A stretch of DNA of 64,000 bases from Alphaproteobacteria bacterium UBA998 (GCA_002291925.1 DBAY01000007.1:7853-71852), one strand, 5' to 3'; positions 5,381 to 20,883 are shown, counted from the first letter of the stretch. Program-made: numbers and translations. The notes: a model not told the origin generated them from the letters alone.

Positions 5381-6496
5381 CTAGCGGACGGCGCGCTTGA
5401 GCAGACGCAGCGGGAATGACATCGGACGCGGCTGCTCCTGCGGTGGCACCTCTTTCACCGCCATGCGTGCCATCAGCTCCTGTTCGTTGCGCCATGCATT
5501 GATCTGTGCGGCAAAGGCCGCTTCATGCGCCCGCTGCTCGTGGCGGTAATCGCCCTCTTCGTTACGGAAGGCCATCGTCGGGTGATCGGCCGTCCAGGAG
5601 CGCGGCGTATTGCACATGAGCAGGGGCTGCCACCCCGCCGGAAGATGCCACGTGCCGCGGAACACGTAATCCCTGGCATTGGAGAGGTAGATTAGCCCGC
5701 CGATGACTGTCAGGCGGGCGAAGAGCGGGAGGTAGTAATCCACATGCTGCTGCTCCATCTCCTGCAGGCTTTCCACATTGATGGCGATGTCAAAGCTGCG
5801 ATCCGGCAGCGACGGCGTCTGCCAGGCGGGCATGATGTAGCAGTCGAACTCCTGGCTGTAGGTGTCGCCATTGTAGAAGGAGCCGATCTTCAGATCGGGA
5901 AATTGCTGGCGCATGTAGAGGAAGGCATACATCAGCGAGCCGGGCACGGCGTCCACCAGCACGTAATGCATCTTGCCGGGGACCATGCTGAGCATCGCCT
6001 CGGCCAGACGCCCGTAACCGCCGCCGACCTCGAAGACGCGCAGCCGCTCGCCGCTGGCCGGTGTGATGCGGTTGAAAGCCGTGATGAGCGCCACGTCCAT
6101 CAGGCTGCCAAGGTCGGTCTCACGCCAGCCGTATTTCTGGCCGTACGCGAGCAGATCCCCGGGAAGCTGCCGGTCATGATCCAGCGCCCGCAGGAAAGGC
6201 TCGTATTTGGTGACCGAATGGGCCTGAAGCGGCTGCATGCCGGTGACGCCGACCCACGGGTCGAGCATCAGCGCCAGGTTGCTGTATTTCTCCTTGTAGA
6301 GCGATTCCGTGTAGCTGCTGATGCGCGACTGACTCGGCGTCTTGCCAAGGTTCTGGTTCCAGTGGTCGGACGGCGCCAGGGCACCGCCATGCGCCAGCAT
6401 GTCGGCCACAATCGCGTCAAACATGGCCTTGTCACCCTGACGGGCAAAACGGCTGCTGCTGTTGTTGAACTGCAGGGGCGTCGAAGTGAAGGGCAC
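5381..6496 (-). CDS. Class I SAM-dependent methyltransferase, putative sugar O-methyltransferase type
   Basis: Motif I VFEVGGGYGRLAE. The overall layout resembles the putative sugar O-methyltransferases found in O-antigen clusters. Confidence 0.65.
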   Translation of the reverse strand: MPFTSTPLQFNNSSSRFARQGDKAMFDAIVADMLAHGGALAPSDHWNQNLGKTPSQSRISSYTESLYKEKYSNLALMLDPWVGVTGMQPLQAHSVTKYEPFLRALDHDRQLPGDLLAYGQKYGWRETDLGSLMDVALITAFNRITPASGERLRVFEVGGGYGRLAEAMLSMVPGKMHYVLVDAVPGSLMYAFLYMRQQFPDLKIGSFYNGDTYSQEFDCYIMPAWQTPSLPDRSFDIAINVESLQEMEQQHVDYYLPLFARLTVIGGLIYLSNARDYVFRGTWHLPAGWQPLLMCNTPRSWTADHPTMAFRNEEGDYRHEQRAHEAAFAAQINAWRNEQELMARMAVKEVPPQEQPRPMSFPLRLLKRAVR

Positions 6497-6664: not shown

Positions 6665-8146
6665 TCATGAGGTCATCACTTCGCGGCCGAACAGGTCGGG
6701 GTCGATGCTAATGCTGCCGTGAATGCCGAGATTCATCTGGTCGACGATCGGCCCGCATAGCATGTCCACGGCGACCCCCAGGGGCTGCACCATGCTCTGC
6801 CAGTAGCGGTAGATCATCTTCGGGTGTTCGCCCATCAGCACCGTCAGGCGGCTGCCTTGCGGCATGAAAATGGCGTTGGCGCAGGCCGCGCCGGTGGCGC
6901 TGATGACGTGCCTTGCATGGGTGAAATACTGCACCTGTTCGTGGAAGGAGAGCTTTTCCGGGTCCAGAATCGCATAGCCGGCCTCGCGGGCGATGCGCTC
7001 CAGCGTATCGTTATTGACGACACGGCGGATGCCCCTGCTGCGCCGCAGGTAAATGCGCTCTGGCCAGTCCCGTTGCGCGAGGTTGAACGCCTGTTTCATC
7101 AGGTGATCGCGCAGGAGGCGGAGCGCGTCGGGCGAGAATTTTCCGTGGGAATGCTGCTCGCCTTCCCCGCCCCGCTGATCGAACGGCACATAGCCGGTAG
7201 GGGTGGTGACATAAAGGCGATCCGCCCAGACCGTCCCAAAGGTGGGAAGCGTGTAAATCAGCCGGTCGCCGCAGACCAGAAAGAGCGAGTTCATCAAGTT
7301 TTCATGCAGCCCGCCATTCACGATGATGGGGACGCCACTGAAACGCGGCTCACGGCAGAACAGATGAATCCGTGGCAGCACCTCGCTCATCCAGTGGGCG
7401 TAATTTCCAGCGCAGCTATCGACAAAACTGGCGGCGACTGGAATGGAAGCCGGGGGAACTGTGTTAATCCGGCGGCGAATGGTGCCCCGACCGATATTCA
7501 GTAGCACCCGGCTATGTAACTCTTCCGAAGTGCGGTCTGTCTCAAATCGATACAGGTCATGATATAAAGCCTTCCCTTGAAGTAAGGCCACTTGCTTGGG
7601 CAGAAATACAAGATTGGTTGCCCCCTGTTGTACGGCGTCATGCGTTTCAAAAATTTTTACGGCTGGAAATAAGAAACTTTCTTCTTTTGTAAGGCGATGT
7701 GGGATTTTTCCTTGCAGGCCGATTACACGTAACGGCGGCAGGTAAACGACAGTCTCTGGCAGTGCGGTTTCACAGCACAAAGAAGGATATTCCGCTAAGT
7801 ATTCGTTATGCCGTGTAAGCTTTGCTGTAGATGTAAACAAAGGCTGCGGGAGTAGTCGAAAAATTAGCTGGCGAAATTTGTGCCAGTATTTTGGGGCGGC
7901 ATAGCGCACATGTCGGTGCAGAAACCTCCAGCCGTAAAGGCAGAGCCGGTGCAGGACTGGCACACGGCGGATCGTGCGCCGGTAGATTGAAAGCAGCCGG
8001 GGAAAATCGGAGATGTTGAGGGGTTTTCTCTCCAATCTCTTCGCCGCCTCGCAGAGCTCGATGATCCTCGGCGTCAGCGGCGGAGTGGCGGCCGATGGCG
8101 CCCCGCCCATGTCCTCCGCAGAGAGATGTGCGCTGTCCCGGGTCAT
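6665..8146 (-). CDS. Glycosyltransferase family 61 (DUF563)-like protein
   Basis: The C-terminal two thirds carry DUF563-like motifs (FVDSCAGNYAHWMSEVLPRI; LSFHEQVQYFTHARHVISATGAACANAIFM). The N-terminal ~215 aa are encoded by visibly lower-GC DNA. Confidence 0.65.
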   Translation of the reverse strand: MTRDSAHLSAEDMGGAPSAATPPLTPRIIELCEAAKRLERKPLNISDFPRLLSIYRRTIRRVPVLHRLCLYGWRFLHRHVRYAAPKYWHKFRQLIFRLLPQPLFTSTAKLTRHNEYLAEYPSLCCETALPETVVYLPPLRVIGLQGKIPHRLTKEESFLFPAVKIFETHDAVQQGATNLVFLPKQVALLQGKALYHDLYRFETDRTSEELHSRVLLNIGRGTIRRRINTVPPASIPVAASFVDSCAGNYAHWMSEVLPRIHLFCREPRFSGVPIIVNGGLHENLMNSLFLVCGDRLIYTLPTFGTVWADRLYVTTPTGYVPFDQRGGEGEQHSHGKFSPDALRLLRDHLMKQAFNLAQRDWPERIYLRRSRGIRRVVNNDTLERIAREAGYAILDPEKLSFHEQVQYFTHARHVISATGAACANAIFMPQGSRLTVLMGEHPKMIYRYWQSMVQPLGVAVDMLCGPIVDQMNLGIHGSISIDPDLFGREVMTS

Positions 8147-8397
8147 GAGATGAACGAATGGCGCGCGGCCTGGGCCGCCTGCTGCCGATTCATAAAGATG
8201 ACGTTGCTGTACAAATCCATCATAGGCGGCAAGTCAATAATATGGCAATCGTTCAAAGGCATGCCGCCATCCTTAGCCATTTTCAGGCAGAATACAAAGA
8301 AAACGTAGCAGTCCATACAGGATGGCGCAGCAATTGTCACGTTGCCATGAAACAAGCTGTTTGACTCGCTAGTGCAATACGATAACCTTGGTCAGTA

Positions 8398-9159
8398 ATG
8401 CCTGTTTCAACAAGGACGGTCATGCCGCTTTATCTCGAACGCACTTGCGCCTATATGCGCCGCCGTCTGGCGGAGGGAATCCGCGGCACGCTGGCCCAGC
8501 CTGCGGCCATGCTGCTGGCGCTCATCTTCACGCTGCTCTACCTGCCGCAGGCTTTTATCCTCATTGAGGACATGGGTTTAATCTCCGCCTTCGAGGTGGA
8601 TCCCGGTAGCCATATTCATGCCATGCGCGATGTGCTGGCGCATTACAGCATGCATGCCGGGTATCACAGCAAATATTATGGATGGACGTATTTTTTCATT
8701 CAATATGTGCTGCTGTCTCCTCTCTACCAGTTTAGTCAAGCATTCGGAGTGCCCGACGAAACAGCGATCTATTTTGGAATCCGTTTGATTCTTTTTGTGA
8801 TTGGCCTGGCGTCCACTCTTGCGTTCTACGCGCTTGTACATCGCCTTTTCAATCGCCAGACGCTTTCCCTGGCAGCAGGGGCAATGTATGCGCTCTCCCC
8901 GGTCACCGCGAAATTCTTTTACTTCATTCACCCGGAAACGACCGGAATTCTCTTTATATTTCTAAGTTTGCATGCCTTGCTTGATTTTCGCAGAAATCCT
9001 GGTGACGGGGTTATTTATACCGCCGGCGTATTCGCGCTTGTGCTGGCCTCTCTCAGCAAGCAGATTTACTTTCTTCTGGCCCTGCCGGTGATGTGGGTGT
9101 TCTTTCTGCATTTTGCCGAGTCGAGCGGCCGGGGCATCCTGAAAACCCTTTTTCAGTGA
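8398..9159 (+). CDS. GT-C fold (ArnT/PMT_2-like) membrane glycosyltransferase, N-terminal part
   Basis: A polytopic membrane protein. The first extracytoplasmic loop carries acidic residues (LIEDMGLISAFEVDPGSH), as in polyprenyl-phosphate-sugar dependent GT-C enzymes. It ends in TGA TGA. Confidence 0.6.
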   Translation: MPVSTRTVMPLYLERTCAYMRRRLAEGIRGTLAQPAAMLLALIFTLLYLPQAFILIEDMGLISAFEVDPGSHIHAMRDVLAHYSMHAGYHSKYYGWTYFFIQYVLLSPLYQFSQAFGVPDETAIYFGIRLILFVIGLASTLAFYALVHRLFNRQTLSLAAGAMYALSPVTAKFFYFIHPETTGILFIFLSLHALLDFRRNPGDGVIYTAGVFALVLASLSKQIYFLLALPVMWVFFLHFAESSGRGILKTLFQ

Positions 9160-10034
9160 TGATGGCACGAATGCTTGCGCTAACGGCGTTTGGCGCATTG
9201 GTCGTGTTTTTCATCATCCATCCGTCTGCGTTTATTCAGTTTCCGTTATTTCTTGAATACCAGTCCACTCTTGGGGGATTTGTGAATGGCGAGAATGCCA
9301 CTTCCCTGCAAAAGGCGCTCAGGCTGTGGAAGGAGGTGCTTGACGCGCATCCGGGAACGCTCATCCTGATGGCGCTGCTGATTCCGGGGATCATAGCGGG
9401 GTTTTGGTATTACCGCATTACGCGACGACCGGAAATGCTCTGGCTCGCAGTGAATGCGCTTTCAGCACTGCTACTGCTGGCGGTCATCATTACCATGAAC
9501 CGGTTGTTTATCATGGTAAGTTATCTTCAGCCGGTCTATCCCTTGCTCATTCTCAATTTCATCGCCCTGCTGGTATGGGCGCGAGATACGCAATGGCGCG
9601 GCGGGTGGGTGCTGCATGTCATAGGTATGTATCTTGGGGCAATACTGATTGGCGGCTTTATGCTCTATTCTGTTCAGGCGCTTTATGACCGATTGAATTA
9701 CAAGGATTCCATCGCATCGATCACGTACGAATATGTGCGCCAGAATGTGGGCGCGAACACGCGCGTGGTGCATGATCATTTCGTGGCGATACCTGAAGCC
9801 ATGAAGCTGCAGTCGTGCCACTATTGGCAGGGCTGCGGCACGGACGCAATTGAGGAGTTTGCGCCTGACGTACTGATGTTTAACCCGGAATTTCGCGTCT
9901 CTGAAAAGCCCTATGCCGAAACGGAGCGGCTGAAGCGCTATGTGCGCGAGCATGGCTTCATCCACGTCACCGATCTCAAGGCACAAAATGTCACCATTTC
10001 TGTCTATCGACGCCCTGAGAAGACAACACCGTAG
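9159..10034 (+). CDS. GT-C membrane glycosyltransferase, C-terminal part (more TM helices plus a soluble C-terminal domain)
   Basis: ATG at 9159 overlaps the upstream stop (TGATG). Several TM helices are followed by a ~110 aa soluble tail. The frame differs from 8398-9159. Confidence 0.55.
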   Translation: MMARMLALTAFGALVVFFIIHPSAFIQFPLFLEYQSTLGGFVNGENATSLQKALRLWKEVLDAHPGTLILMALLIPGIIAGFWYYRITRRPEMLWLAVNALSALLLLAVIITMNRLFIMVSYLQPVYPLLILNFIALLVWARDTQWRGGWVLHVIGMYLGAILIGGFMLYSVQALYDRLNYKDSIASITYEYVRQNVGANTRVVHDHFVAIPEAMKLQSCHYWQGCGTDAIEEFAPDVLMFNPEFRVSEKPYAETERLKRYVREHGFIHVTDLKAQNVTISVYRRPEKTTP

Positions 10035-10145
10035 TCATAATCTAGAGTAATGATCAACGTACAGTTTTTCTTGCGAAGTTGGAGCTGAGAAACTACGGTA
10101 GCGCCGTTTTTACCCACCCATCTGAACGATACGGAAAGACCAACC

Positions 10146-11372
10146 ATGCAGCCGAAAGTCGCTTACGCCAAAACCGTTTATGGCCAGAAGGAAATTGATG
10201 CCGTCGTCAAATGCCTGAACGAGAGCACGCAGATGGGCAAATATGCGAGCCAGTTCGAGGCGCGCATTGCCTCCCTCTTTGCCAAGAGGCACGGGCTGTT
10301 CGTCAATTCCGGTTCTTCGGCGCTCTATATCGGCATGGAAGCAATGGGCTTCACGCCGGGCGGAGAGGTCATCACTCCGGCGCTGACCTTCTCCACCACG
10401 GTGGGCTGCATCGTGAAATCAGGGCTGGTGCCCGTCTTCGTCGATGTCGGCGTCAGTGACTACTGCATCGATGTCAGCCGCATCGAGGAGATGGTGACGG
10501 ACAAGACGGTGGCCATCCTGGCTCCGAACCTGCTCGGCAATCTGTGCGAATGGGACAAGATCGCGGACATCGCCAAGCGCCATAACCTCAAGGTGATCGA
10601 GGATTCCGCTGATACGCTGGGCGCGACGCTGCACGGCAAGTCTAGCGGATACTGGAGCGACTGGTCGATCACCAGCTTCTACGGCTCGCACATCATCAAC
10701 TGCGCCGGCAATGGCGGCATGCTCTGCCTGAATGATCCGGATCAGCTGCGCGAGGCGAAGCTGCTGCGCTCCTGGGGCCGTTCCTCCTCGATCTTCGATG
10801 AGAAGAGCGAGGCGATTGAGAACCGGTTCAACGTGGATGTGGACGGGATTGAGTACGACGCGAAATTCATTTTCGAGCGCATCGGCTACAATTTGGAGGG
10901 CTCGGAGATCGGCGCTGCGTTCGGGCTCGCCCAGCTTGAGGATCTCGAGCAGAATATCCGCACCCGCGAGGCCAATTACGCCCGCCAGACGCGCTTCTTC
11001 CAGCAATATGAGGAATTCTTCGTGCTGCCGCAGCAGACCGAAGGAACCCGTACCGCCTGGCTCGCCTATCCGGTCGTCATCCGCCCGGATGCGCCCTTCA
11101 AGCGCCGCGAACTCCAGATTGCGCTGGAGAAACAGGCGGTGCAGACCCGCACGGTGTTCTCGGGCAACATCACCCGCCAGCCCGGCTACCGGAACCTGCC
11201 GATGCGCATCTCGCCGCAGGGGCTGGCCAACGCGGACAATATCATGCGCGGCGGCGTCCTGCTGGCCTGCCACCACGGCCTGACCGAGGAGATGTTCACC
11301 TACATGCACGGGCATATCGAGGAGTTCCTGCGGCCGTATCTGGCGCAGGGCCGTGTCTCCAAGGCGGTGTAA
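10146..11372 (+). CDS. DegT/DnrJ/EryC1-family PMP-dependent sugar 3-dehydratase (RfbH/E1/ColD-like)
   Basis: DegT fold motifs are present. The usual Schiff-base lysine position reads SFYGSHIINCAGNGG, with His instead of Lys. This is the hallmark of E1/ColD/SpnQ-type dehydratases. Confidence 0.75.
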   Translation: MQPKVAYAKTVYGQKEIDAVVKCLNESTQMGKYASQFEARIASLFAKRHGLFVNSGSSALYIGMEAMGFTPGGEVITPALTFSTTVGCIVKSGLVPVFVDVGVSDYCIDVSRIEEMVTDKTVAILAPNLLGNLCEWDKIADIAKRHNLKVIEDSADTLGATLHGKSSGYWSDWSITSFYGSHIINCAGNGGMLCLNDPDQLREAKLLRSWGRSSSIFDEKSEAIENRFNVDVDGIEYDAKFIFERIGYNLEGSEIGAAFGLAQLEDLEQNIRTREANYARQTRFFQQYEEFFVLPQQTEGTRTAWLAYPVVIRPDAPFKRRELQIALEKQAVQTRTVFSGNITRQPGYRNLPMRISPQGLANADNIMRGGVLLACHHGLTEEMFTYMHGHIEEFLRPYLAQGRVSKAV

Positions 11373-11378
11373 TCGCGC

Positions 11379-12326
11379 ATGGCGGCGAAGAAGCTGATCT
11401 CCATTGTCATCCCGGCCTATAACGAGGAGGCCTGCACCGCCCCGCTTGAGCGCGGCATCAGCGGCATCATCGACAGCCTGCCGCAGTATGATTTCGAGGT
11501 GATCATCGTCGAGAACGGCTCGTATGACCGCACCTACGAGCAGCTGATGGAAATCCACCAGCGCGATGGCCGTTACAAGATCGTCAAGCTGACCCGCAAT
11601 GTCGGCCCGGAAAACGCCATCTGTGCCGGCCTGCAGTTCGCGCGCGGGGATGCGGCCATCATCACCTATGCCGACCTCGAAGACCCGCCCCACCTGATGC
11701 GCGACTTCATCGCCAAATGGGAGGAGGGCTACAAGCATGTATACGGCATCACGCGGCAGCGGCAGGGCAGCCGCCTGCGGCGCTTCAATTCCCAGCTTTT
11801 CTATACCATCATCAACCGGCTGACCAATAACGTGGTGCCGAAGAATGTAGCGGATTTCCGGCTGGTCGACCGGCAGGTCTACCAGGAGATCAACCGCATC
11901 ACCGAGAAGAACCGCTTCCTGCGGGGCCTGTTCGCGTGGCTGAACTATAAATCCTTCGGCATCGAATATGACCGCAACACCACGCGGGCGGGCGGCGAAT
12001 CGAAAGCCTCGACGCTGGTGGTGCTGGCGCTGGCGCTCAAGGCCATTTTCTCCTACTCGAATTTTCCCCTCAAGATCGCCAGTATTCTGGGTTGCGTCAC
12101 CGGGGGGCTCTCGCTGCTCGCCATCGTCTATTTCATCGTGCAGTATCTCTTCTTCGATACGTTTCCCTTCAGCGGGTTTGGCACCATCGTGGTGCTGATG
12201 CTGCTGATGTTCAGCATCCTCTTCTTCCTGATCGGGATTCTGGGTGAATATGTGGCGCTGATTTACAGCGAGGTGAAGGGGCGCCCGCTCTTCGTGGTGG
12301 ATGAGCTGGTCGGGATCCGTCCGTGA
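11379..12326 (+). CDS. GT2 polyprenyl-phosphate glycosyltransferase (GtrB/ArnC-like)
   Basis: SIVIPAYNEE, IIVENGSYDRT and YADLEDPP motifs, plus two C-terminal TM helices, as in GtrB/ArnC. Confidence 0.85.
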   Translation: MAAKKLISIVIPAYNEEACTAPLERGISGIIDSLPQYDFEVIIVENGSYDRTYEQLMEIHQRDGRYKIVKLTRNVGPENAICAGLQFARGDAAIITYADLEDPPHLMRDFIAKWEEGYKHVYGITRQRQGSRLRRFNSQLFYTIINRLTNNVVPKNVADFRLVDRQVYQEINRITEKNRFLRGLFAWLNYKSFGIEYDRNTTRAGGESKASTLVVLALALKAIFSYSNFPLKIASILGCVTGGLSLLAIVYFIVQYLFFDTFPFSGFGTIVVLMLLMFSILFFLIGILGEYVALIYSEVKGRPLFVVDELVGIRP

Positions 12327-12757
12327 CGACGGACGAGGCCGCGGGAATACGCTTCTGGCCGCTGGCAGTTTTTTTCCGCCTGCCGCAGCCGCTGCGCTAT
12401 CTGCTGATCGGTGGCTATAACACGGTCATGAGCGGCGCGCTCTATGCCGGGCTCTACCTGTTGCTCGGCGAGAAGCTGCATTACCTCCTGATCCTGGTGC
12501 TGAATTACCTGATCTCGGTTACCCATTCCTTCCTGACGATGAAGTACCTCGTTTTTCGCAGCCGCGGCCATGTCTGGCGGGAGTATCTGCGCTGCCAGCT
12601 TTCCTACCTAACGCTGCTCGGAGCCAATATTCCGTTGCTCAGCCTGCTGGTGGACGGTCTGGGTATGGGCGCCATTCTTGCCCAGTTTATCTGCACCGTG
12701 GTCATCGCGGCGCTGGGCTACGTCCTGCACAAGCGCTTCTCCTTCGCGGCGCGGTAG
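12323..12757 (+). CDS. GtrA-family small membrane protein
   Basis: 144 aa with four TM helices. Motifs YLLIGGYNTVMSGALY and HKRFSF are typical of GtrA. The GTG start overlaps the upstream stop (GTGA). Confidence 0.8.
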   Translation: MTTDEAAGIRFWPLAVFFRLPQPLRYLLIGGYNTVMSGALYAGLYLLLGEKLHYLLILVLNYLISVTHSFLTMKYLVFRSRGHVWREYLRCQLSYLTLLGANIPLLSLLVDGLGMGAILAQFICTVVIAALGYVLHKRFSFAAR

Positions 12758-12784
12758 CGACGCTCGGCAGAGTCTTCCGGTATT

Positions 12785-14557
12785 TCAGGCGGCGGCTGGC
12801 CGGGTCTTGCGCTGATGGTCGGCCACGAAGGGGTTGTCGGCGATGAATTCGCTATCGCTCAGATAGGGGAACTGGTCATGCAGCGGATTGCCCAGCTCCA
12901 GTTTCGGCTCCAGCACCGTATTCGGGTGGATGATCACGTCGATGAGCCGCGCGCCGCCGCTGAAGGGGGAGGCGGCGATGTCCTCCAGCTGCTCCACGCG
13001 CTGATAGCCGATGCCGTAAGCCTCGGCCAGTTTGCTGAAATCCGGGCAGCTATAGCCGTGGCCGGTCGCGGCATAGCGCCCGGCGAAGTTGAGGTCCTGA
13101 AACTGCTTGATGATGCCATAGCCGCCGTTATTCATCACGATGATGGTGATCGGCAGCCCGTGCTCGCGGATGACTTGCAGCTCTTGAATGTTGAGTTGCA
13201 TCCCGCCATCGCCGATGACAGCGATCACCTGCCGGCCCGGCTGCACGAGCGCCGCGCCGATGGCCGCCGGCAGCGCATAGCCCATCGGCGAGTTGCCCCC
13301 GGCGGTGAATATGGCCTGACGGCGGCGCAGGAAGGTCTGGAAAAGCCAGCACATGGCGGCGCCGGTATCGCCGATGACCACGGCATCCTCCGTGACATAC
13401 TCGCTGAGACGCTCGATGACGGCGTAGGGCGAGAGCGTGCCGCTGCGCTCGGCGAACTGGCTGTGCGTTTTGCCAAAATAGCGCGCGTGCATCTGCCCCA
13501 CATAGCTGCGCCACGCGGGTGACTGCACCGGCGCGGGCACCTGATCCAGCACGCTCCCGAACCCGGCGAAATTCGCCTGGATCGTCCGGTATTCGTTGAT
13601 GGCGTATTTCCGCAGCTCCTCGCCGTCCACGTCAATCGCCAGCACTTCGGCGCTGATGGCGAACAGCTTGGTGTTGGAGCCGCGCTGGCGGTTATCGAGC
13701 CGGCTGCCGAGGACGAGCAGGCGATCACAATTCTGCACGAGGCAGTTTGCACCGCGATTGCCATAGACACCGATGGTGCCGTGATAATTCGGCGAGTAAT
13801 TGTCGAAATAGCGCATGCCGTTCCAGCTAGCGACAAACGAGATGCCGTGGCGGTTCAGGAAGGCCTCGACGGCGGCCGCTTCCTGCGCCCCCGCCAAGCC
13901 CGGCCCGGCACCGAAAATGGCCAGCGGCCGCTCACCGCCGCGGAAGAACTCGGAGATGCGCTGCGCGATGGCGGTATCTTCCGACGCGCTGCGCGAAGAG
14001 ACGGCGGGCGGTGCATATTGCAGGACGCTGCCCATATCTTCCTGCTGCACATTCATCGGCACGTCGATCAGCACCGGACCCTTGCGGTCGCTGATAGCGA
14101 TGTTCCATGCCTTCTCCAGCTCGCGGCGCAGTTCCTCGCCGCTGGTCACCTGCACGGCGTATTTAGTGATCGGGCGGACCATGTCGACGATCTTGGTTTC
14201 CTGGAACCCGGCCTGCCGGACATCCGCGCCGAGATATTGCGCGCTCTCCCGCAGGTTGATCTGCCCGGTGATGTGAATGGAGGGGATGGAGTCGAAATAG
14301 GAGCAGGCGATGCCGGTGATGAGATTGGTGGCGCCGGGCCCGGACGTCGCGACCGTCACCCCCGGAATGCCGGTGGTGCGCCAGACGGCATCCGCCGCCA
14401 TCGCCGCGCCCTGCTCATGGTGAAAGCAGGTATAGCCCAGCTGCGGGTGGCGTTCGATGGCATCAATGATGAAGGCGCAGGCCCCGCCCGTCATCAGGAA
14501 GACATTGGAGACGCCGCGCTGATGCAGGAACTCCGCAATGTATTCCGAGCCGTTCAT
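12785..14557 (-). CDS. Thiamine-diphosphate enzyme of the acetolactate-synthase large-subunit family (YerE-like candidate)
   Basis: Start taken at MNGSEYIAEFL (ATG 14557). The N-terminal ThDP pyrimidine domain has HEQGAAMAADA and TSGPGATNL. The ThDP motif is GDGGMQLNIQELQVIREHGLPITIIVMNNGGYG. Confidence 0.85.
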   Translation of the reverse strand: MNGSEYIAEFLHQRGVSNVFLMTGGACAFIIDAIERHPQLGYTCFHHEQGAAMAADAVWRTTGIPGVTVATSGPGATNLITGIACSYFDSIPSIHITGQINLRESAQYLGADVRQAGFQETKIVDMVRPITKYAVQVTSGEELRRELEKAWNIAISDRKGPVLIDVPMNVQQEDMGSVLQYAPPAVSSRSASEDTAIAQRISEFFRGGERPLAIFGAGPGLAGAQEAAAVEAFLNRHGISFVASWNGMRYFDNYSPNYHGTIGVYGNRGANCLVQNCDRLLVLGSRLDNRQRGSNTKLFAISAEVLAIDVDGEELRKYAINEYRTIQANFAGFGSVLDQVPAPVQSPAWRSYVGQMHARYFGKTHSQFAERSGTLSPYAVIERLSEYVTEDAVVIGDTGAAMCWLFQTFLRRRQAIFTAGGNSPMGYALPAAIGAALVQPGRQVIAVIGDGGMQLNIQELQVIREHGLPITIIVMNNGGYGIIKQFQDLNFAGRYAATGHGYSCPDFSKLAEAYGIGYQRVEQLEDIAASPFSGGARLIDVIIHPNTVLEPKLELGNPLHDQFPYLSDSEFIADNPFVADHQRKTRPAAA

Positions 14558-14558
14558 C

Positions 14559-16406
14559 TCAGAACGCGCGCCGCATGGTGACGTCGTAGGCAGCAGCGGG
14601 CTCATATTCGGAAGCCACGATCTCCTGATAGAAGCTCTGCCCGGCTTCGGAGACGCGGCGCATCGGAACGCGCAGGATCTCGCTGAAGCCCAGCGCCTCA
14701 TACAGGCGCACGGCCGGGGTGTTATGGCCGAGGACGCGCAGATACATGTGCGCCAGGTCGAACTCCTGTTTCGCCCAGTCGATCAGCGCCGTGCAGGCAG
14801 CCTGCATGATGCCCTTCTCCGCGCCTGCTACGCCGCGCACGATGTTGTCGAGCTCGCAGAAGCGTTGCTGGTGATTGAAGCGGAAGAGGCCGACATGGCC
14901 GATTTTCTCGCCCTTCGCATTCTCCACGAAGAAGAGGAGGCGGTCCGGCACCTCGAACAGGGCCTTGTCCATCCAGCGCTGCGTCCCTTCCTCGGTCACA
15001 GTGAACTGCGAGGGGAACCATTCCTGCGCGTTGCGACGCCAGTCGGCCAGCAGCTTCACCAGCTCCGGCCGGGAGGAATCCTGTTGCGTGACCGGCACGA
15101 GGCGGCCCTTCTGGCCCTGCGCGCCATAGGTGAAGGCCAGCGACGGGTTTTCCTCGCCGGTCTTGATGCGGCGCAGCGTGGCGGTGGTCCGCTCGCGGCG
15201 GGCGAGCCAGCCGCCGACCGGGATGGAGGCGCTGCCGCCGCGCGTGCGCGCCAGGATATCGCGCACATGGCCGCAGATATAGTCGATTTCCTCCTCGGTG
15301 CGGTTATGGCCGCTGGGCAGGTTGATGCCGCGCAGCCCGACATGGTACGCGGTCGGGTTGGCGGCCTGGGTGAACATCGGGAAGGCGCTGATCGGGTAGA
15401 AGATCGGCCGGGAGTCGACCTTGCGTTGCTTCAGCTCAGCGATGAAGGCGTCACGCTCTAGCGGCACCTTGTCCGAGAGGACGATGGAGCTCATCCAGTA
15501 GATGTTCTTGGCCCACGGCTTCTGGCCGTTGATGCTGATCTCCGGGATGTCCTGCAACCGCTCCTGGTACCATTTGAAGATCTGGATGCGGCGCTCGACA
15601 ATCTCCTCGGCCCGTTCGATCTGGGCGAGGCCGATGGCCGCCTGCACGTTCGACATCTTGTATTTGAAGCCGATCGACTCGTTGAAGAGGACCTTTGTCT
15701 TGCTGCGGCCATGGTCGCCGATGATGCGGGCGCGGTCCATCAACTCGGCGTCCGACGTGACGAGCATGCCGCCCTCGCCGGTCACCACCGCCTTGGCGCC
15801 CTGGAAGCTGAAGGCCGCGGCATTGCCGATCGAGCCGGTCTTGCGGCCGTAATATTCCGCGCCGATGGCCTGCGCCGAATCCTCGAAGACGAAGAGGTTA
15901 TGCTTGCGGGCCAGCTCCAGCAGCGGGTTCATGTCGCAGGGATGGCCGTAGAGATGCACCGGCATGATGGCCTTGGTGCGCGGGGTAATGAGCCGCTCCA
16001 CGCTTTCGGGCAGCATGGTCCAGGATTCCGGGTCAATGTCGCAGAAGACCGGGGTGGCGCCGGTGTAGACGACCGCCGAGGCGGTGGCGATCCAGGTCAG
16101 CTCCGGCACGATGACCTCGTCGCCCTCGCCGATGCCGGCGGCCAGCAGTGCCAGATGCATGGCGCCGGTGCAGCTGGAGGTGGCCATGGCATGGCTGGTG
16201 CCGACATAGCCGGCAAAGGTCTTCTCGAATTTCGCGAGATATTCTCCCCATTTATCGTTCCAGCCATTCTTCACGGCATCGACGCCGTAAGCCACTTCGC
16301 GGGTGGAAATGGTCGGCCCGGCGGTCAGGATGAGCTGGGAGATGGTGCGCGGCGCCTCTTCCACGTCGGAGGAGAGGGTCGGCTTTTCAGCGAGCGAGGG
16401 GGTCAT
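14559..16406 (-). CDS. Fusion protein: DegT-family sugar aminotransferase (N) plus GNAT N-acetyltransferase (C)
   Basis: The aminotransferase part retains the catalytic lysine (FSFQGAKAVVTGEGG). The C-terminal ~170 aa have a GNAT core (IGHVGLFRF...GIMQAACTALIDWA...LRVLGHNTPAVRLYEALGF). Confidence 0.85.
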   Translation of the reverse strand: MTPSLAEKPTLSSDVEEAPRTISQLILTAGPTISTREVAYGVDAVKNGWNDKWGEYLAKFEKTFAGYVGTSHAMATSSCTGAMHLALLAAGIGEGDEVIVPELTWIATASAVVYTGATPVFCDIDPESWTMLPESVERLITPRTKAIMPVHLYGHPCDMNPLLELARKHNLFVFEDSAQAIGAEYYGRKTGSIGNAAAFSFQGAKAVVTGEGGMLVTSDAELMDRARIIGDHGRSKTKVLFNESIGFKYKMSNVQAAIGLAQIERAEEIVERRIQIFKWYQERLQDIPEISINGQKPWAKNIYWMSSIVLSDKVPLERDAFIAELKQRKVDSRPIFYPISAFPMFTQAANPTAYHVGLRGINLPSGHNRTEEEIDYICGHVRDILARTRGGSASIPVGGWLARRERTTATLRRIKTGEENPSLAFTYGAQGQKGRLVPVTQQDSSRPELVKLLADWRRNAQEWFPSQFTVTEEGTQRWMDKALFEVPDRLLFFVENAKGEKIGHVGLFRFNHQQRFCELDNIVRGVAGAEKGIMQAACTALIDWAKQEFDLAHMYLRVLGHNTPAVRLYEALGFSEILRVPMRRVSEAGQSFYQEIVASEYEPAAAYDVTMRRAF

Positions 16407-16506: not shown

Positions 16507-17577
16507 TCAGAGACCGGCCAGATCGAGGTATTGCGTGATCTGGCGCAGGGTGACGGCGTGCATGTCGGCCTTGGCGAAATACTCGCCGAACCAGTCCGCC
16601 GTCAGCTGGATGGCTTCTTCCTGCGTATAGCGCGGGCGCCAGCCGATGGCATGCTTGATCTGGCTGTTATCGAGCCGCAGCGTCAGGGTTTCATGCAGGC
16701 GGTCATCGCGTTCGATGCGGTACTCGCCGCGTCCGAGCGTGGTGATGAATATTTGTGTCAGCGCCTCAACGGTGATCGGATGCACGTCATCCGGGCCGAA
16801 ATTGAAGGCGGTGGCAAAGCGGGCACCTTCCGTGTGCAGCCATGCCGCCAGCATCAGATAGCCGGCGACCACCTCGATGACATGCTGCCAGGGACGAATG
16901 GCGTCCGGTGAGCGAAGCGTCACCGTTTGCCCGCGCATGACGCTCTCGACGATGTCGGGAATCAGGCGGTCCTGCGAGAAATCGCCGCCTCCGATGACGT
17001 TGCCCGCGCGCGCCGAAGCCAGATGAATTCCGGCCTCCGCGAAAAAGGAGCGCCGGTAGGAGGTGGTGATAAGCTCCGCACAGGCCTTGGAGGCGGAGTA
17101 GGGGTCATGGCCGCCCAGCCGGTCGTTCTCGCGATAGGGCCAGACCCATTCGGCGTTCTCGTAGCATTTGTCGGTCGTGATATTGAGCACGGTACGGCAG
17201 CTGTTCTGGCGCCGGATCGCCTCGAACAGATGGACCGTGCCGAGAATATTGGTCTGCCACGTTTCCAGCGGGTCGCGGTAGGAGGCGCGCACCAGCGGTT
17301 GCGCGGCCATATGGATGATGATGTCCGGGCGGGCGGCGGCCATCGCGGCTTCCAGCGCCACGGCGTCGCGGATATCGCCGTAGGTGGAGCGGGTGATGCG
17401 GTCACCGATGGACAGCTGCTCGAACAGGTTGCCGCGAAGATTCACCGGCGGCAGGGCGAATCCGTACACTTCCGCGCCGAGATGCGCCAGAAGCAGCGCC
17501 ATCCAGCTCCCCTTGAAGCCGGTATGGCCGGTGAGGAAAATCCGTTTTCCGGCGTAGAAATCCGCAAGGCGCGTCAT
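16507..17577 (-). CDS. rfbG: CDP-glucose 4,6-dehydratase
   Basis: GKRIFLTGHTGFKGSWMALLL Rossmann motif and YSASK catalytic motif. 356 aa. The ATGA overlap with rfbF suggests translational coupling. Confidence 0.9.
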   Translation of the reverse strand: MTRLADFYAGKRIFLTGHTGFKGSWMALLLAHLGAEVYGFALPPVNLRGNLFEQLSIGDRITRSTYGDIRDAVALEAAMAAARPDIIIHMAAQPLVRASYRDPLETWQTNILGTVHLFEAIRRQNSCRTVLNITTDKCYENAEWVWPYRENDRLGGHDPYSASKACAELITTSYRRSFFAEAGIHLASARAGNVIGGGDFSQDRLIPDIVESVMRGQTVTLRSPDAIRPWQHVIEVVAGYLMLAAWLHTEGARFATAFNFGPDDVHPITVEALTQIFITTLGRGEYRIERDDRLHETLTLRLDNSQIKHAIGWRPRYTQEEAIQLTADWFGEYFAKADMHAVTLRQITQYLDLAGL

Positions 17578-18368
17578 AGGCAGATGTTTCCGTTATCCTG
17601 CCAGAGCTTCCATGGGGCGCCTTCCTCCCACAGCTTCATGAGGTAGTTCTTGTCGCGCAGCGTATCCATCGGCTGCCAGAAGCCGGAATGCCGGTAGGCC
17701 ACGAGTTGCCCTTCCCGCGCCAGGTTTTCCAGCGGTTCGCGCTCGAGAACGGTTTGCGACGAGTCGATATACCCAAGCGCCTTGCGGTTCATCACGAAGA
17801 AGCCGCCATTGATGTAGGATCCGTCGCCCTGCGGCTTTTCAATGAAGGAGCTGACCTGACCGCTCTCGCTGAGTTCGAGCGCGCCGAAGCGGCCGGACGG
17901 CTTGACGGCGGTGACGGTCGCCAGCTTGCCGTGCGCCAGGTGGAAATCGACGAGGCGGCGGATGTCGATGTCGGCCACCCCGTCGCCGTAGGTGAGGCAG
18001 AAATGCTCATCCTCTTCGAGGAAGCGGCCGATGGCTTTGACGCGGCCGCCGGTCATGGTGTTTTCGCCCGTCTCGACCAGCGTCACGCGCCAGGGCTCGC
18101 TGCGCGTATCGTGGAAATGCTCGGCGTTGGTGCGCATGTCGTAAGTGATGTCCGACATGTGCCGGAAGTAGTTGGCGAAATACTCCTTGATGTAATAGCC
18201 GCGATAGCCGAGGCAGATGATGAAATCATGAAAGCCGTAATGTGAATAAATTTTCATGATATGCCAAAGGATGGGCTTGCCGCCGATCTCGATCATTGGC
18301 TTGGGCTTGAGGTCCGTCTCCTCTGAAATCCGGCTGCCGAAACCGCCCGCCAGCAATACCACTTTCAT
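17574..18368 (-). CDS. rfbF: Glucose-1-phosphate cytidylyltransferase
   Basis: MKVVLLAGGFGSRISEETDLKPKPMIEIGGKPILWHIMKIYSHYGFHDFIICLGYRG is near-canonical RfbF. ATG at 18368 is preferred over the GTG at 18377. Confidence 0.9.
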   Translation of the reverse strand: MKVVLLAGGFGSRISEETDLKPKPMIEIGGKPILWHIMKIYSHYGFHDFIICLGYRGYYIKEYFANYFRHMSDITYDMRTNAEHFHDTRSEPWRVTLVETGENTMTGGRVKAIGRFLEEDEHFCLTYGDGVADIDIRRLVDFHLAHGKLATVTAVKPSGRFGALELSESGQVSSFIEKPQGDGSYINGGFFVMNRKALGYIDSSQTVLEREPLENLAREGQLVAYRHSGFWQPMDTLRDKNYLMKLWEEGAPWKLWQDNGNICL

Positions 18369-18626
18369 ATGCTTCACCCGTCGCTGCTACGTAAATCCTT
18401 TGTGCCGACAGTTATAGGAAGGATGGCGTGGCCTTGTCCAGCGGGCATATTAAGACGTCTCATGTGAAGAAGAAAGCGAAGTATCGCCTATGATTCATGG
18501 TCTTGGCGAAAGCAGGCGAGCGCTTTCCAGACGGAATGTCGGGGGGAATCTCTCTTGGAATGCCCTTGGATGTACAGATATTCTTGAAGCAGTATGTCGT
18601 GCAAACGCAGCATGAAATCGACGGAG

Positions 18627-19609: not shown

Positions 19610-20612
19610 TCAGATATTTTCGAGGTCGAAAGGGGTGCTCGTGATTTCCAGACGCTCAAAGTCGCGCGCGGTGAGGCCGAGGAATTCCAACACGTCATCC
19701 TGTCTAATGGCTTCGCGGGCGACGGCAATCTCGCTGGCGTATTGCTGCTGCTGTTCAAGGGTCAGCACCAGCACCAGCGTGTCGAGGCCGTCATCCCCGC
19801 TATAGAGGTCGATACCACCTTCCGCGCTGTTCTCGAACTCGGTAAGGGCGTAATAGATGCGGTCATTGCCGTCGCCACCGAGGACGGTGTCGTTGCCGAG
19901 CCCGCCGGTCAGCGTGTCGTCACCGGCCTCGCCGTTGATGCGGTCATTCTCATCTCCGCCATCGATCTGGTCACGGCCATTGCCACCGCGCAAACTGTCG
20001 CTGCCAGCGCCGCCATTGATGAGATCGTTGCCGCTGCCGCCCTTGACCGTATCGGCGCCGACATAGCTGCTAATGGTATCATTTCCGCTGCCGCCATCGA
20101 TGAAGTCACGCCCGCCGCCCTCGGGATTGTCCGCCGCGTCGTCGCCCTCGTCCCCGCCGACCAGCACGTCATTGCCCGCGCCGCCCAGAAGGGAATCATT
20201 GCCGTAGCTGCCGATGAGGGTGTCATGGCCGTTGCCGCCCTCGATCGGTCCCGTAATCGTCGAGGCCGCCGAAGACGAGGTCGTTGCCGTCACCGGCCTT
20301 GATCCTGTCATCTCCCTCACTGCCGAAGATGCTGTCATCGCCGCTGCCGCCTACCAAGGTGTCCTTCCCGAAACTGCCGAATAGGGTGTCCCGGCCGGAG
20401 CCCCCATCAATCAAGCCAGCGAAATCAAGCGTCAGGAGATCATTTCCGCTGCCGCCATAAATCGAATCACGATTGGGATCGTCGAATCCTTCGCCAAAAA
20501 ACTGGTACCCGCCGAAGATCATATCATTACCGCCATAACCAAAGATTTTCTCGGTCAGCTCGCTGCCGATAATGAAGTTATTTTCGTTGGTTCCGCGAAT
20601 CATTTTGGCCAT
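19610..20612 (-). pseudogene. RTX calcium-binding repeat protein interrupted by one frameshift (near 20240-20270)
   Basis: Two overlapping ORFs (20223-20624 and 19610-20338), both full of GGxGxD nonapeptides. The total span of 1003 nt is not a multiple of 3. A GGAG SD precedes the ATG at 20612. Confidence 0.7.
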
Positions 20613-20883
20613 GTCCGTCTCCATATCCCTAGAAAGGAATCGAAGAGAACTTTTTTCAGTAAAAGATCGATAGGTGAGAAAGGAAAGTGTGCGAAGATTT
20701 TTTTAGTTGAAATCTTAATATCAATTTCGTTCAGGGTATTTTCTTATCTGGTATCAGACTGATAGAAGCATCTAACCTAGACCAGAATACAGACGCATTT
20801 ATATCGTTATATGCTTCTAGCGTATGGCTGCCGATGCGCCAGACGGCAGTGGGTTAGTCCTATCAATTTTTGGAAAACAAGTC

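Follow-up and report, generated by a model that had tools for sequence, protein, structure and literature searches.

A predicted pathway to a C-branched, N-acetylated CDP-dideoxysugar in an alphaproteobacterial locus that pairs a YerE-like enzyme with an aminotransferase-GNAT fusion

Within a 64,000-nucleotide stretch of the genome of Alphaproteobacteria bacterium UBA998, an uncultured aquatic organism (GCA_002291925.1, DBAY01000007.1:7853-71852), the whole of which is called the window here, a thiamine diphosphate (ThDP)-dependent enzyme resembling YerE is encoded beside a DegT-family aminotransferase fused to a GNAT acetyltransferase, among genes for a sugar linked to cytidine diphosphate (CDP). 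We favor, with reasonable though far from complete confidence, the view that ten genes between 5.4 and 18.4 kb belong together as a single surface-glycan module, the core of which would make a C-branched, N-acetylated dideoxy sugar from CDP-glucose and would place the amine on the branch. YerE-like enzymes are already established in deoxysugar clusters, and the variant with an aminotransferase and a GNAT domain is well supported as a set of genes, its chemistry being predicted. An earlier, sequence-only reading of the window had proposed a product that is N-acetylated and possibly C-branched, and the comparative data favor a sugar that is both. That reading was silent on the branch carbon as the site of the amine, which the comparisons suggest is a likelier position than ring C4.

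The ThDP protein has the Pfam architecture of an acetohydroxyacid synthase (AHAS), with the domains TPP_enzyme_N, TPP_enzyme_M, and TPP_enzyme_C at 100.6, 69.2, and 132.6 bits, and its relatives are often annotated automatically as ‘acetolactate synthase’. These two observations would fit an ordinary large subunit of acetolactate synthase for branched-chain amino acids, lying beside sugar genes by chance, an explanation to which we attach a vanishingly small probability. The protein scores below the cutoff on every NCBIfam AHAS model, the best value being 359 bits (cutoff 738) and that on TIGR00118 being 346 bits (cutoff 538), whereas a separate, genuine AHAS on contig C35 of the same genome reaches 794 bits on TIGR00118. 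Its best matches in the PDB are 5AHK, which we take to be PpYerE, at 305 bits and 8RPH at 272 bits, with the best AHAS structure at 237 bits. The cofactor-activating glutamate in HHEQGA and a GDGG...NN ThDP motif are both present, and the segments HHEQGA and IGDGGMQLN...VMNNGGYG align with 5AHK, so that the three domains and the catalytic motifs are all in place. PpYerE and JanthE are the two YerE-like enzymes with structures, and a CDG variant of the ThDP motif is a hallmark of JanthE (PMC12247030); in our alignment, 8RPH carries this variant.

A quick maximum-likelihood tree, with groups set by gene context, puts the window protein among enzymes of CDP-sugar clusters, in a clade with 100% support, and pairs the AHAS of contig C35 with Escherichia coli IlvI (98%). 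The sequences of YpYerE, ErwE, MMAR_2332, and JanthE lie outside this tree, and PDB bit scores and context groups were used in their place. Clustering with IlvB/IlvG enzymes was not seen, and no ilvN/ilvH-like neighbor of the ThDP gene was found in the window or in any related locus examined (related loci carry L numbers below). The immediate neighbors are the fusion gene and a gtrA-family gene, and rfbF, rfbG, and a dehydratase gene resembling E1 adjoin the ThDP gene in the window and in L001, L002, L004, L010, L015, L091, L093, and L098, a CDP-sugar neighborhood that is conserved across phyla. The AHAS scores, the tree, the missing ilvN/ilvH, and these neighbors together rule out an ordinary acetolactate synthase. 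Judged from its sequence and surroundings, the ThDP protein is YerE-like, as the sequence-only reading had it.

The closest cultured relatives of this enzyme, at 58-59% identity, are found in Bradyrhizobium cenepequi and an Azospirillum sp., where the operons run rfbF, rfbG, E1, ThDP gene, and a gene for an Epimerase-family short-chain dehydrogenase/reductase (SDR) of 301-311 amino acids. The Bradyrhizobium E1 scores 701 bits on the RfbH model (NF011936, cutoff 423). Yersiniose genes are laid out as DdhA/B/C, YerE, and YerF (PMC9306805), and by gene content the Bradyrhizobium and Azospirillum clusters are of this yersiniose type. In the position of their SDR, the window has the aminotransferase-GNAT fusion. 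Other members of the YerE-like family are accompanied by different helper genes: a PanB-like ketopantoate hydroxymethyltransferase gene in Candidatus Deianiraea vastatrix (L092, 10001-12598), genes for a HAD hydrolase and an HpcH/HpaI aldolase in L004 (9796-11346, the aldolase gene after the ThDP gene), and a gene for a NeuB-like synthase in L006 (6875-7975). This variety suggests different, longer donor 2-oxo acids and hence different branches.

The fusion protein was described in the sequence-only reading as a lysine-containing DegT aminotransferase joined to a GNAT domain, and the domain searches bear this out. DegT_DnrJ_EryC1 (PF01041) covers residues 34-381 with 386 bits, and GNAT models cover residues 436-575 (PF13302, 54 bits; PF00583, 44 bits). 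The lysine that forms the Schiff base with pyridoxal 5'-phosphate (PLP), K205 (FSFQGAKAVVTGEGG, codon 15794-15792), is invariant in 18 fusion homologues. With PF01041 above its cutoff and this lysine in place, the first domain belongs to the DegT/DnrJ/EryC1 aminotransferases; it lies below the cutoffs of the named equivalogs LegC, PseC, ArnB, WecE, and DesI, the best being LegC with 300 bits (cutoff 420), followed by PseC with 246 (423.5). Among solved structures, it is most similar to 3BN1, a perosamine synthetase (319 bits). Residues 396-615 are modeled by AlphaFold with a pLDDT of 94 and take up a GNAT fold, for which the top Foldseek matches are SpeG, AAC(6'), and PseH, each with a probability of 1.00, with RimL also among the neighbors. 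These neighbors are generic and do not distinguish a ring-amine from a branch-amine acceptor.

The fusion itself is, on the sequence evidence, genuine and not an artefact of two separate genes. Both domains are found together in more than 100 clusters of proteins about 580-635 amino acids long, at 45-95% identity, in Rickettsiales, Nitrospirae, Cyanobacteria, Spirochaetia, and other groups, and the same fusion gene is present in L001, a locus 94% identical to that of the window. Furthermore, the reverse order, GNAT before aminotransferase, occurs as single open reading frames (ORFs) in L009 (612 amino acids), L010 (604), and L015 (565). A scan of genome contigs with the fusion alignment, for which motifs of the aminotransferase domain were used, returned mostly stand-alone aminotransferases, and these were kept as a contrast group.

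The pairing of aminotransferase and GNAT with an enzyme that forms carbon-carbon bonds is the feature that carries most of the argument. L001, from the metagenome-assembled genome Alphaproteobacteria bacterium UBA1002, has the same arrangement as the window; L002 (71% identical) has the full set of eight genes, differently ordered; and in L098 the genes for RfbF, RfbG, the E1-like DegT protein described below, a family 2 glycosyltransferase (GT2), the fusion, the ThDP enzyme, and GtrA are co-linear in one predicted operon, with a similar arrangement on a JGI contig. In 17 of the 17 loci examined, an aminotransferase of this clade and a GNAT domain occur with a ThDP-dependent enzyme of this kind in the same genome. 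A YerE-like enzyme adjoins them in seven (the window, L001, L002, L010, L015, L098, and the JGI contig). A split transketolase, encoded as Transketolase_N followed by Transket_pyr/Transketolase_C, does so in nine (L007, L008, L009, L012, L013, L022, L100, L102, and one further contig). In the last, L101, the split transketolase pair is on another contig of the same genome, and there is no ThDP gene within 8 kb of the fusion. The genome of the window contains no split transketolase.

Split-transketolase cassettes for branched sugars have been proposed for miharamycin and amipurimycin, and in the relatives of the present cassette such an enzyme replaces the YerE-like one beside the same aminotransferase and GNAT. 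The survey of Krug et al. (2024), so far as it is relayed in PMC12247030, knew of 13 split transketolases, all from Streptomycetes; the hosts here are Nitrospirae, Chloroflexota, Omnitrophota, Planctomycetota, and Proteobacteria. When aminotransferase domains were placed in a tree, those linked to a ThDP enzyme or transketolase all fell into a single clade (SH-aLRT 92), divided into two subclades (98) that follow the order of the fusion, and YerE-like and transketolase contexts are mixed inside both. The fusion aminotransferase also lies within a 100%-supported clade of aminotransferases linked to CDP-sugar genes, and its sister group consists of stand-alone aminotransferases linked to rfbF and rfbG, with neither GNAT nor ThDP enzyme. 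Two unrelated ThDP families, each of which would leave an alpha-hydroxy ketone branch, interchange around a constant aminotransferase and GNAT, which speaks for a need of the aminotransferase for that ketone. We consider this interchange the strongest argument for the order of steps proposed below.

Aminotransferases of the sister clade are linked to rfbF and rfbG in L024, L014, L016-L018, L020, L023, L029, and L033. The only one of these loci to be annotated, L024 (6327-11823, Pseudomonas subflava), encodes RfbF, RfbG, a 3,5-epimerase, a C-methyltransferase (Methyltransf_13/14), the aminotransferase, and a WbqC-like protein, in this order, and looks from its gene content like an uncharacterised pathway to a CDP-linked C-methyl amino sugar.

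In the proposed pathway, RfbF would make CDP-glucose and RfbG would convert it to CDP-4-keto-6-deoxyglucose, two steps assigned by curated equivalog models on which both proteins score at or above the cutoffs. On homology and context, a DegT protein lacking an iron-sulfur (Fe-S) cluster would then remove the 3-hydroxyl group by a ColD-like route, using pyridoxamine 5'-phosphate (PMP) and glutamate and working without the reductase E3, to give CDP-4-keto-3,6-dideoxyglucose. Homology and context likewise suggest that the YerE-like enzyme would decarboxylate a 2-oxo acid and add the acyl anion to C4, leaving a tertiary alcohol and an acetyl branch. Pyruvate would be the simplest donor because there is no aldolase gene nearby, unlike in L004 and in the erwiniose cluster (PMC9306805). 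The fusion aminotransferase would transaminate the sole remaining ketone, at C1' of the branch, and the fused GNAT domain would acetylate the resulting amine to give CDP-3,6-dideoxy-4-C-(1-acetamidoethyl)hexose; for these two steps, we draw on chemical logic, co-occurrence, and one natural-product precedent. Finally, homology and context point to a GT2 that would load the sugar onto undecaprenyl phosphate, a GtrA protein that would flip it, and a GT-C enzyme that would transfer it to a periplasmic acceptor.

The proposed site of the amine follows from where a carbonyl is available. RfbG makes only one, at C4, the dehydratase uses and regenerates it, and the ThDP step consumes it and leaves a new one at C1' of the branch; transamination requires a carbonyl, and the amine would therefore be on the branch. 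By this chemical logic, no other order of steps brings all the conserved enzymes to bear on one sugar. The precedent comes from actinomycete secondary metabolism, where in the amycolose of kibdelomycin and amycolamicin a ThDP enzyme puts an acetyl branch on a keto sugar and the branch ketone is then ‘transaminated (kibdelomycin)’ (PMC12247030). That ThDP enzyme differs from the one in the window in being of the alpha-keto acid dehydrogenase-2 type and in placing the branch at C3. More generally, transaminases are listed among the enzymes that modify such branches (PMC9306805).

The route resembles that to yersiniose A in Yersinia pseudotuberculosis (DdhA/B/C/D, YerE, YerF), which likewise starts with CDP-glucose, 4,6-dehydration, and 3-deoxygenation, and the window shares a three-domain carboligase of the ThDP/FAD type with the YerE-like enzymes PpYerE (5AHK), JanthE, ErwE, and MMAR_2332. 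In contrast with yersiniose A, the window has no YerF, and the fusion stands in its place, where it would take over from the YerF ketoreductase. No SDR or YerF-like ORF lies between 5.3 and 18.4 kb, and the YerF-like protein of Bradyrhizobium, used as a query, found no match anywhere in the genome, for which marker genes indicate 100% completeness. The sequence-only reading had likewise remarked that no YerF-type reductase was visible. Among the loci sampled here, a YerF-type SDR and the aminotransferase-GNAT pair never occur together. Two further differences from yersiniose A are that no E3 was found in the locus, where the E1-like enzyme has none of the Fe-S ligands, and that the sugar appears to leave by way of a polyprenyl-phosphate GT2, GtrA, and GT-C instead of a cytoplasmic O-unit glycosyltransferase.

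The E1-like enzyme, a DegT protein with histidine at the position of the Schiff-base lysine (referred to as the His-type DegT protein), is of interest in its own right. Its segment SFYGSHIIN aligns with SFYPAHHIT of the E1 structure 3BCX. The cysteine ligands of the [2Fe-2S] cluster in E1 follow the motif C-X57-C-X-C-X7-C, and all four positions are replaced in the window protein, which has IEDSAD and WGRSSSIFDEKSEAIENRF where E1 has IEDCCD and WGRDCYCAPGCDNTC. It scores 310 bits on the RfbH model NF011936, below the cutoff of 423. All 121 family members found (73-97% identity) keep the histidine and none of the 121 has a cysteine in the segment of the E1 cluster, so that, by sequence, the His-type DegT proteins stand apart as a subfamily of their own with very high conservation. 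In the other loci of the comparison set, every E1-like gene retains DC(W/Y)C...TC. Among the cassette relatives, a cysteine-bearing E1 is found in L009, L010, L012, and L102, and the Fe-S-free type in the window, L098, L100, and L101.

No ORF of the ferredoxin-reductase type (E3) was detected by Pfam between 5.4 and 18.4 kb, the region to which the search for E3 was confined. The lack of Fe-S ligands and of an E3 gene in the locus would fit ColD-like chemistry without a reductase, by analogy, and the protein is predicted to be an E3-independent CDP-4-keto-6-deoxyglucose 3-dehydratase. The histidine in place of the PLP lysine is common to ColD, to E1/RfbH/DdhC, and to the window protein, and the lack of an Fe-S motif is shared with ColD only; ColD, a 3-dehydratase of GDP-4-keto-6-deoxymannose, works in a guanosine diphosphate (GDP) context, whereas the window protein lies in a CDP context and is nearer to E1 in sequence. 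Two neighboring genes in related loci deserve mention. In L102 (2452-6121), a transketolase version of the cassette, the gene for the cysteine-bearing E1 is interrupted by an rve-family transposase and has an E3-like NAD_binding_1 gene upstream. In L002 (12528-13883), a gene for a TylC3-like sugar C-methyltransferase adjoins the His-type degT gene; it is absent from the window locus, and the sugar of the L002 strain may carry an extra methyl branch.

Export of the sugar on undecaprenyl phosphate is suggested by the genes for GT2, GtrA, and GT-C, the same trio as in the Arn, Gtr, and Pgf systems (ArnC/ArnT, GtrA/GtrB/GtrX, and PgfS). The GT2 matches PgfS (233 bits, cutoff 500) and ArnC (131 bits, cutoff 529) over their full lengths and stays below both equivalog cutoffs; it probably works like the ArnC/GtrB/PgfS family but is not assigned to either equivalog. 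The window departs from those systems in its expected donor, a CDP-sugar, and in the frameshift within its GT-C gene. The GT2 gene adjoins the His-type degT gene in L001, L002, L098, L101, and the JGI contig, and gtrA is conserved in L001, L002, and L098. The GT-C gene is a single ORF in L001 (546 amino acids) and L002 (541) and is split between two frames in the window, which is one nucleotide shorter than L001 near 9150 (junction at about 9150-9164). A Logan contig from a sequencing run that may represent the source sample (run X1, the data for which are contigs only) is identical to the window over 8390-10486, frameshift included. Rather than an error of one assembler, the split probably marks a true pseudogene or a site of slippage. 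The same run contains, over 11700-13700, a second variant of the locus, about 85-95% similar, with many substitutions and a 13-nucleotide deletion between the gtrA and ThDP genes, which indicates that related strains co-exist in that sample.

Several considerations weigh against the pathway with an amine on the branch. The chemistry of the cassette is read from sequences and gene context. A literature search for 4-C-branched 3,6-dideoxy sugars produced neither a glycan with a 1-acetamidoethyl branch nor any other amino-branched example, which is not proof of absence. The aminotransferase is most like enzymes acting at ring C4 (3BN1 at 319 bits, and the sister clade of CDP-sugar enzymes), so that a reaction at an exocyclic ketone would mean altered regiochemistry. 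The His-type DegT protein is closer to E1 (3BCX, 214 bits) than to ColD (134 bits), so that the ColD-like chemistry is an analogy. The 17 loci were gathered by similarity to proteins of the window and do not make up an unbiased sample; two of them, L001 and L002, are closely related to the window itself. Finally, with its GT-C gene frameshifted, the last transfer step may be failing in this organism.

The main alternative to an amine on the branch, which we hold to be unlikely, is that the fusion puts an acetylated amine on ring C4 of CDP-4-keto-6-deoxyglucose or CDP-4-keto-3,6-dideoxyglucose, which would yield a 4-acetamido sugar, and that the ThDP enzyme either turns the same intermediate into a separate branched sugar or uses another substrate. 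Besides the ring-C4 relatives of the aminotransferase just mentioned, it can draw on the position of the dehydratase gene of the window, which is in the other operon with the genes for GT2 and GtrA, and on L101, where the fusion, the His-type DegT, GT2, rfbF, and rfbG are present and no ThDP gene is nearby. It leaves unexplained, however, why a ThDP or transketolase enzyme is present in all 17 genomes. A second, branched sugar would need a YerF-type reductase, and none was found in the locus or the genome; one polyprenyl-phosphate GT2 would have to serve two sugars; and the stand-alone CDP-sugar aminotransferases that have no ThDP partner belong to a different clade and have no GNAT. A further explanation, that the aminotransferase works on the donor side, converting an amino acid to a 2-oxo acid for the ThDP enzyme while the GNAT acts elsewhere, seems to us very improbable. 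Donor 2-oxo acids of YerE-like enzymes can arise, among other routes, when amino acids are transaminated (PMC9306805), but the aminotransferase belongs to the DegT family of nucleotide-sugar enzymes and to the 100%-supported CDP-sugar-linked clade, and its fusion to an N-acetyltransferase, seen in both orders, implies that it produces the amine and does not consume it.

The genes on which the favored pathway rests, together with their neighbors, are listed in Table 1. The sequence-only reading had named rfbF, rfbG, the fusion, and the ThDP gene, with a stop and a start codon separated by one nucleotide, and these calls match ours in every particular: on the minus strand, the TGA of the fusion gene (14561-14559) is followed by G (14558) and the ATG of the ThDP gene (14557-14555). 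It had overlooked the 3-deoxygenation gene at 10146-11372 and the lipid-carrier export genes of the convergent operon. The stop of rfbF and the start of rfbG overlap by 4 nucleotides, and a gap of 100 nucleotides separates rfbG from the fusion gene. The likely true start of rfbF is the ATG at 18368. The predicted plus-strand operon (GT-C, His-type DegT, GT2, and GtrA genes) converges on this one and stops 27 nucleotides from the stop codon of the ThDP gene. In a scan for promoters and terminators between 12.2 and 19 kb, no signal informative about operon structure exceeded the shuffled expectation.

Table 1. Predicted genes and protein domains of the glycan locus, in window coordinates.
Feature	Position	Strand	Basis
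rfbF, glucose-1-phosphate cytidylyltransferase	17574..18377	-	TIGR02623 419 bits, cutoff 300
rfbG, CDP-glucose 4,6-dehydratase	16507..17577	-	TIGR02622 452 bits, cutoff 278
DegT aminotransferase + GNAT fusion, 615 aa	14559..16406	-	Pfam
Fusion, DegT-family PLP aminotransferase domain	~residues 26-385, nt 16331-15252	-	Pfam
Fusion, GNAT acetyltransferase domain	~residues 436-575, nt 15101-14682	-	Pfam
YerE-like ThDP-dependent carboligase (predicted), 590 aa	12785..14557	-	Pfam, PDB matches, tree
GtrA-family small membrane protein, candidate flippase of lipid-linked sugar	12323..12757	+	PF04138 66 bits
GT2, polyprenyl-phosphate type (ArnC/GtrB/PgfS-like)	11379..12326	+	PF00535 92 bits
E1/RfbH-like PMP enzyme (His-type DegT), 408 aa	10146..11372	+	Alignment to E1 structures 3BCX/3BB8
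GT-C/PMT_2-like membrane glycosyltransferase, split by frameshift	8398..10034 (8398-9159 + 9162-10034)	+	PF13231 32 bits on first part
GT61-family glycosyltransferase	6665..8146	-	PF04577 85 bits
Putative sugar O-methyltransferase, NanM-like	5381..6496	-	TIGR04371 95 bits, cutoff 44

The genes for the GT61 enzyme and the NanM-like protein probably belong to the same glycan locus. A gene 73% identical to that for the NanM-like O-methyltransferase adjoins the GT-C gene in L001, and GT61 genes recur beside the cassette in unrelated lineages (including the window, L100 at 12284-13330, and the further transketolase contig counted above), where they may encode a transferase or further modifier of its sugar. 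Over 7000-10000, a segment that takes in the GT-C gene and the 3' portion of the GT61 gene, G + C content drops to 0.53-0.55, compared with 0.60-0.65 elsewhere in the locus. Just upstream of rfbF, two overlapping minus-strand ORFs of 242 and 133 amino acids (19610-20624) both contain RTX/HemolysinCabind nonapeptide repeats; possibly they are a single gene, broken by a frameshift, whose product would be secreted or of the S-layer type and could be a target of glycosylation.

C-branched sugars made by YerE enzymes are rare and antigenically distinctive parts of bacterial surfaces, and enzymes of the YerE type are sought after as catalysts for chiral tertiary alcohols. More than 200 gene clusters with YerE-like enzymes have been predicted, almost all of them with no known product structure, in what PMC12247030 reports of the survey of Krug et al. 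(2024). The cassette described here points to one concrete product and occurs in many phyla, mostly in uncultured organisms. Around its constant aminotransferase and GNAT pair, two non-orthologous replacements are seen, one between a YerE-like enzyme and a split transketolase, and the other between an Fe-S E1 and an Fe-S-free dehydratase. We see roughly even chances that it represents an undescribed class of surface sugar, a 3,6-dideoxyhexose with a 1-acetamidoethyl group at C4 (1-acetamido-2-hydroxyethyl in the transketolase versions). Its synthesis and use would then include three steps new to their families: action of a DegT aminotransferase on the ketone of an exocyclic branch, 3-dehydration by an enzyme derived from E1 that uses neither Fe-S cluster nor E3, and use of a CDP-sugar donor by an enzyme of the ArnC/GtrB type in periplasmic glycosylation. 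If true, this would not amount to a new kind of system, but it would provide an amino-branched sugar for bacterial glycobiology and an E3-independent CDP-sugar 3-dehydratase for enzymology.

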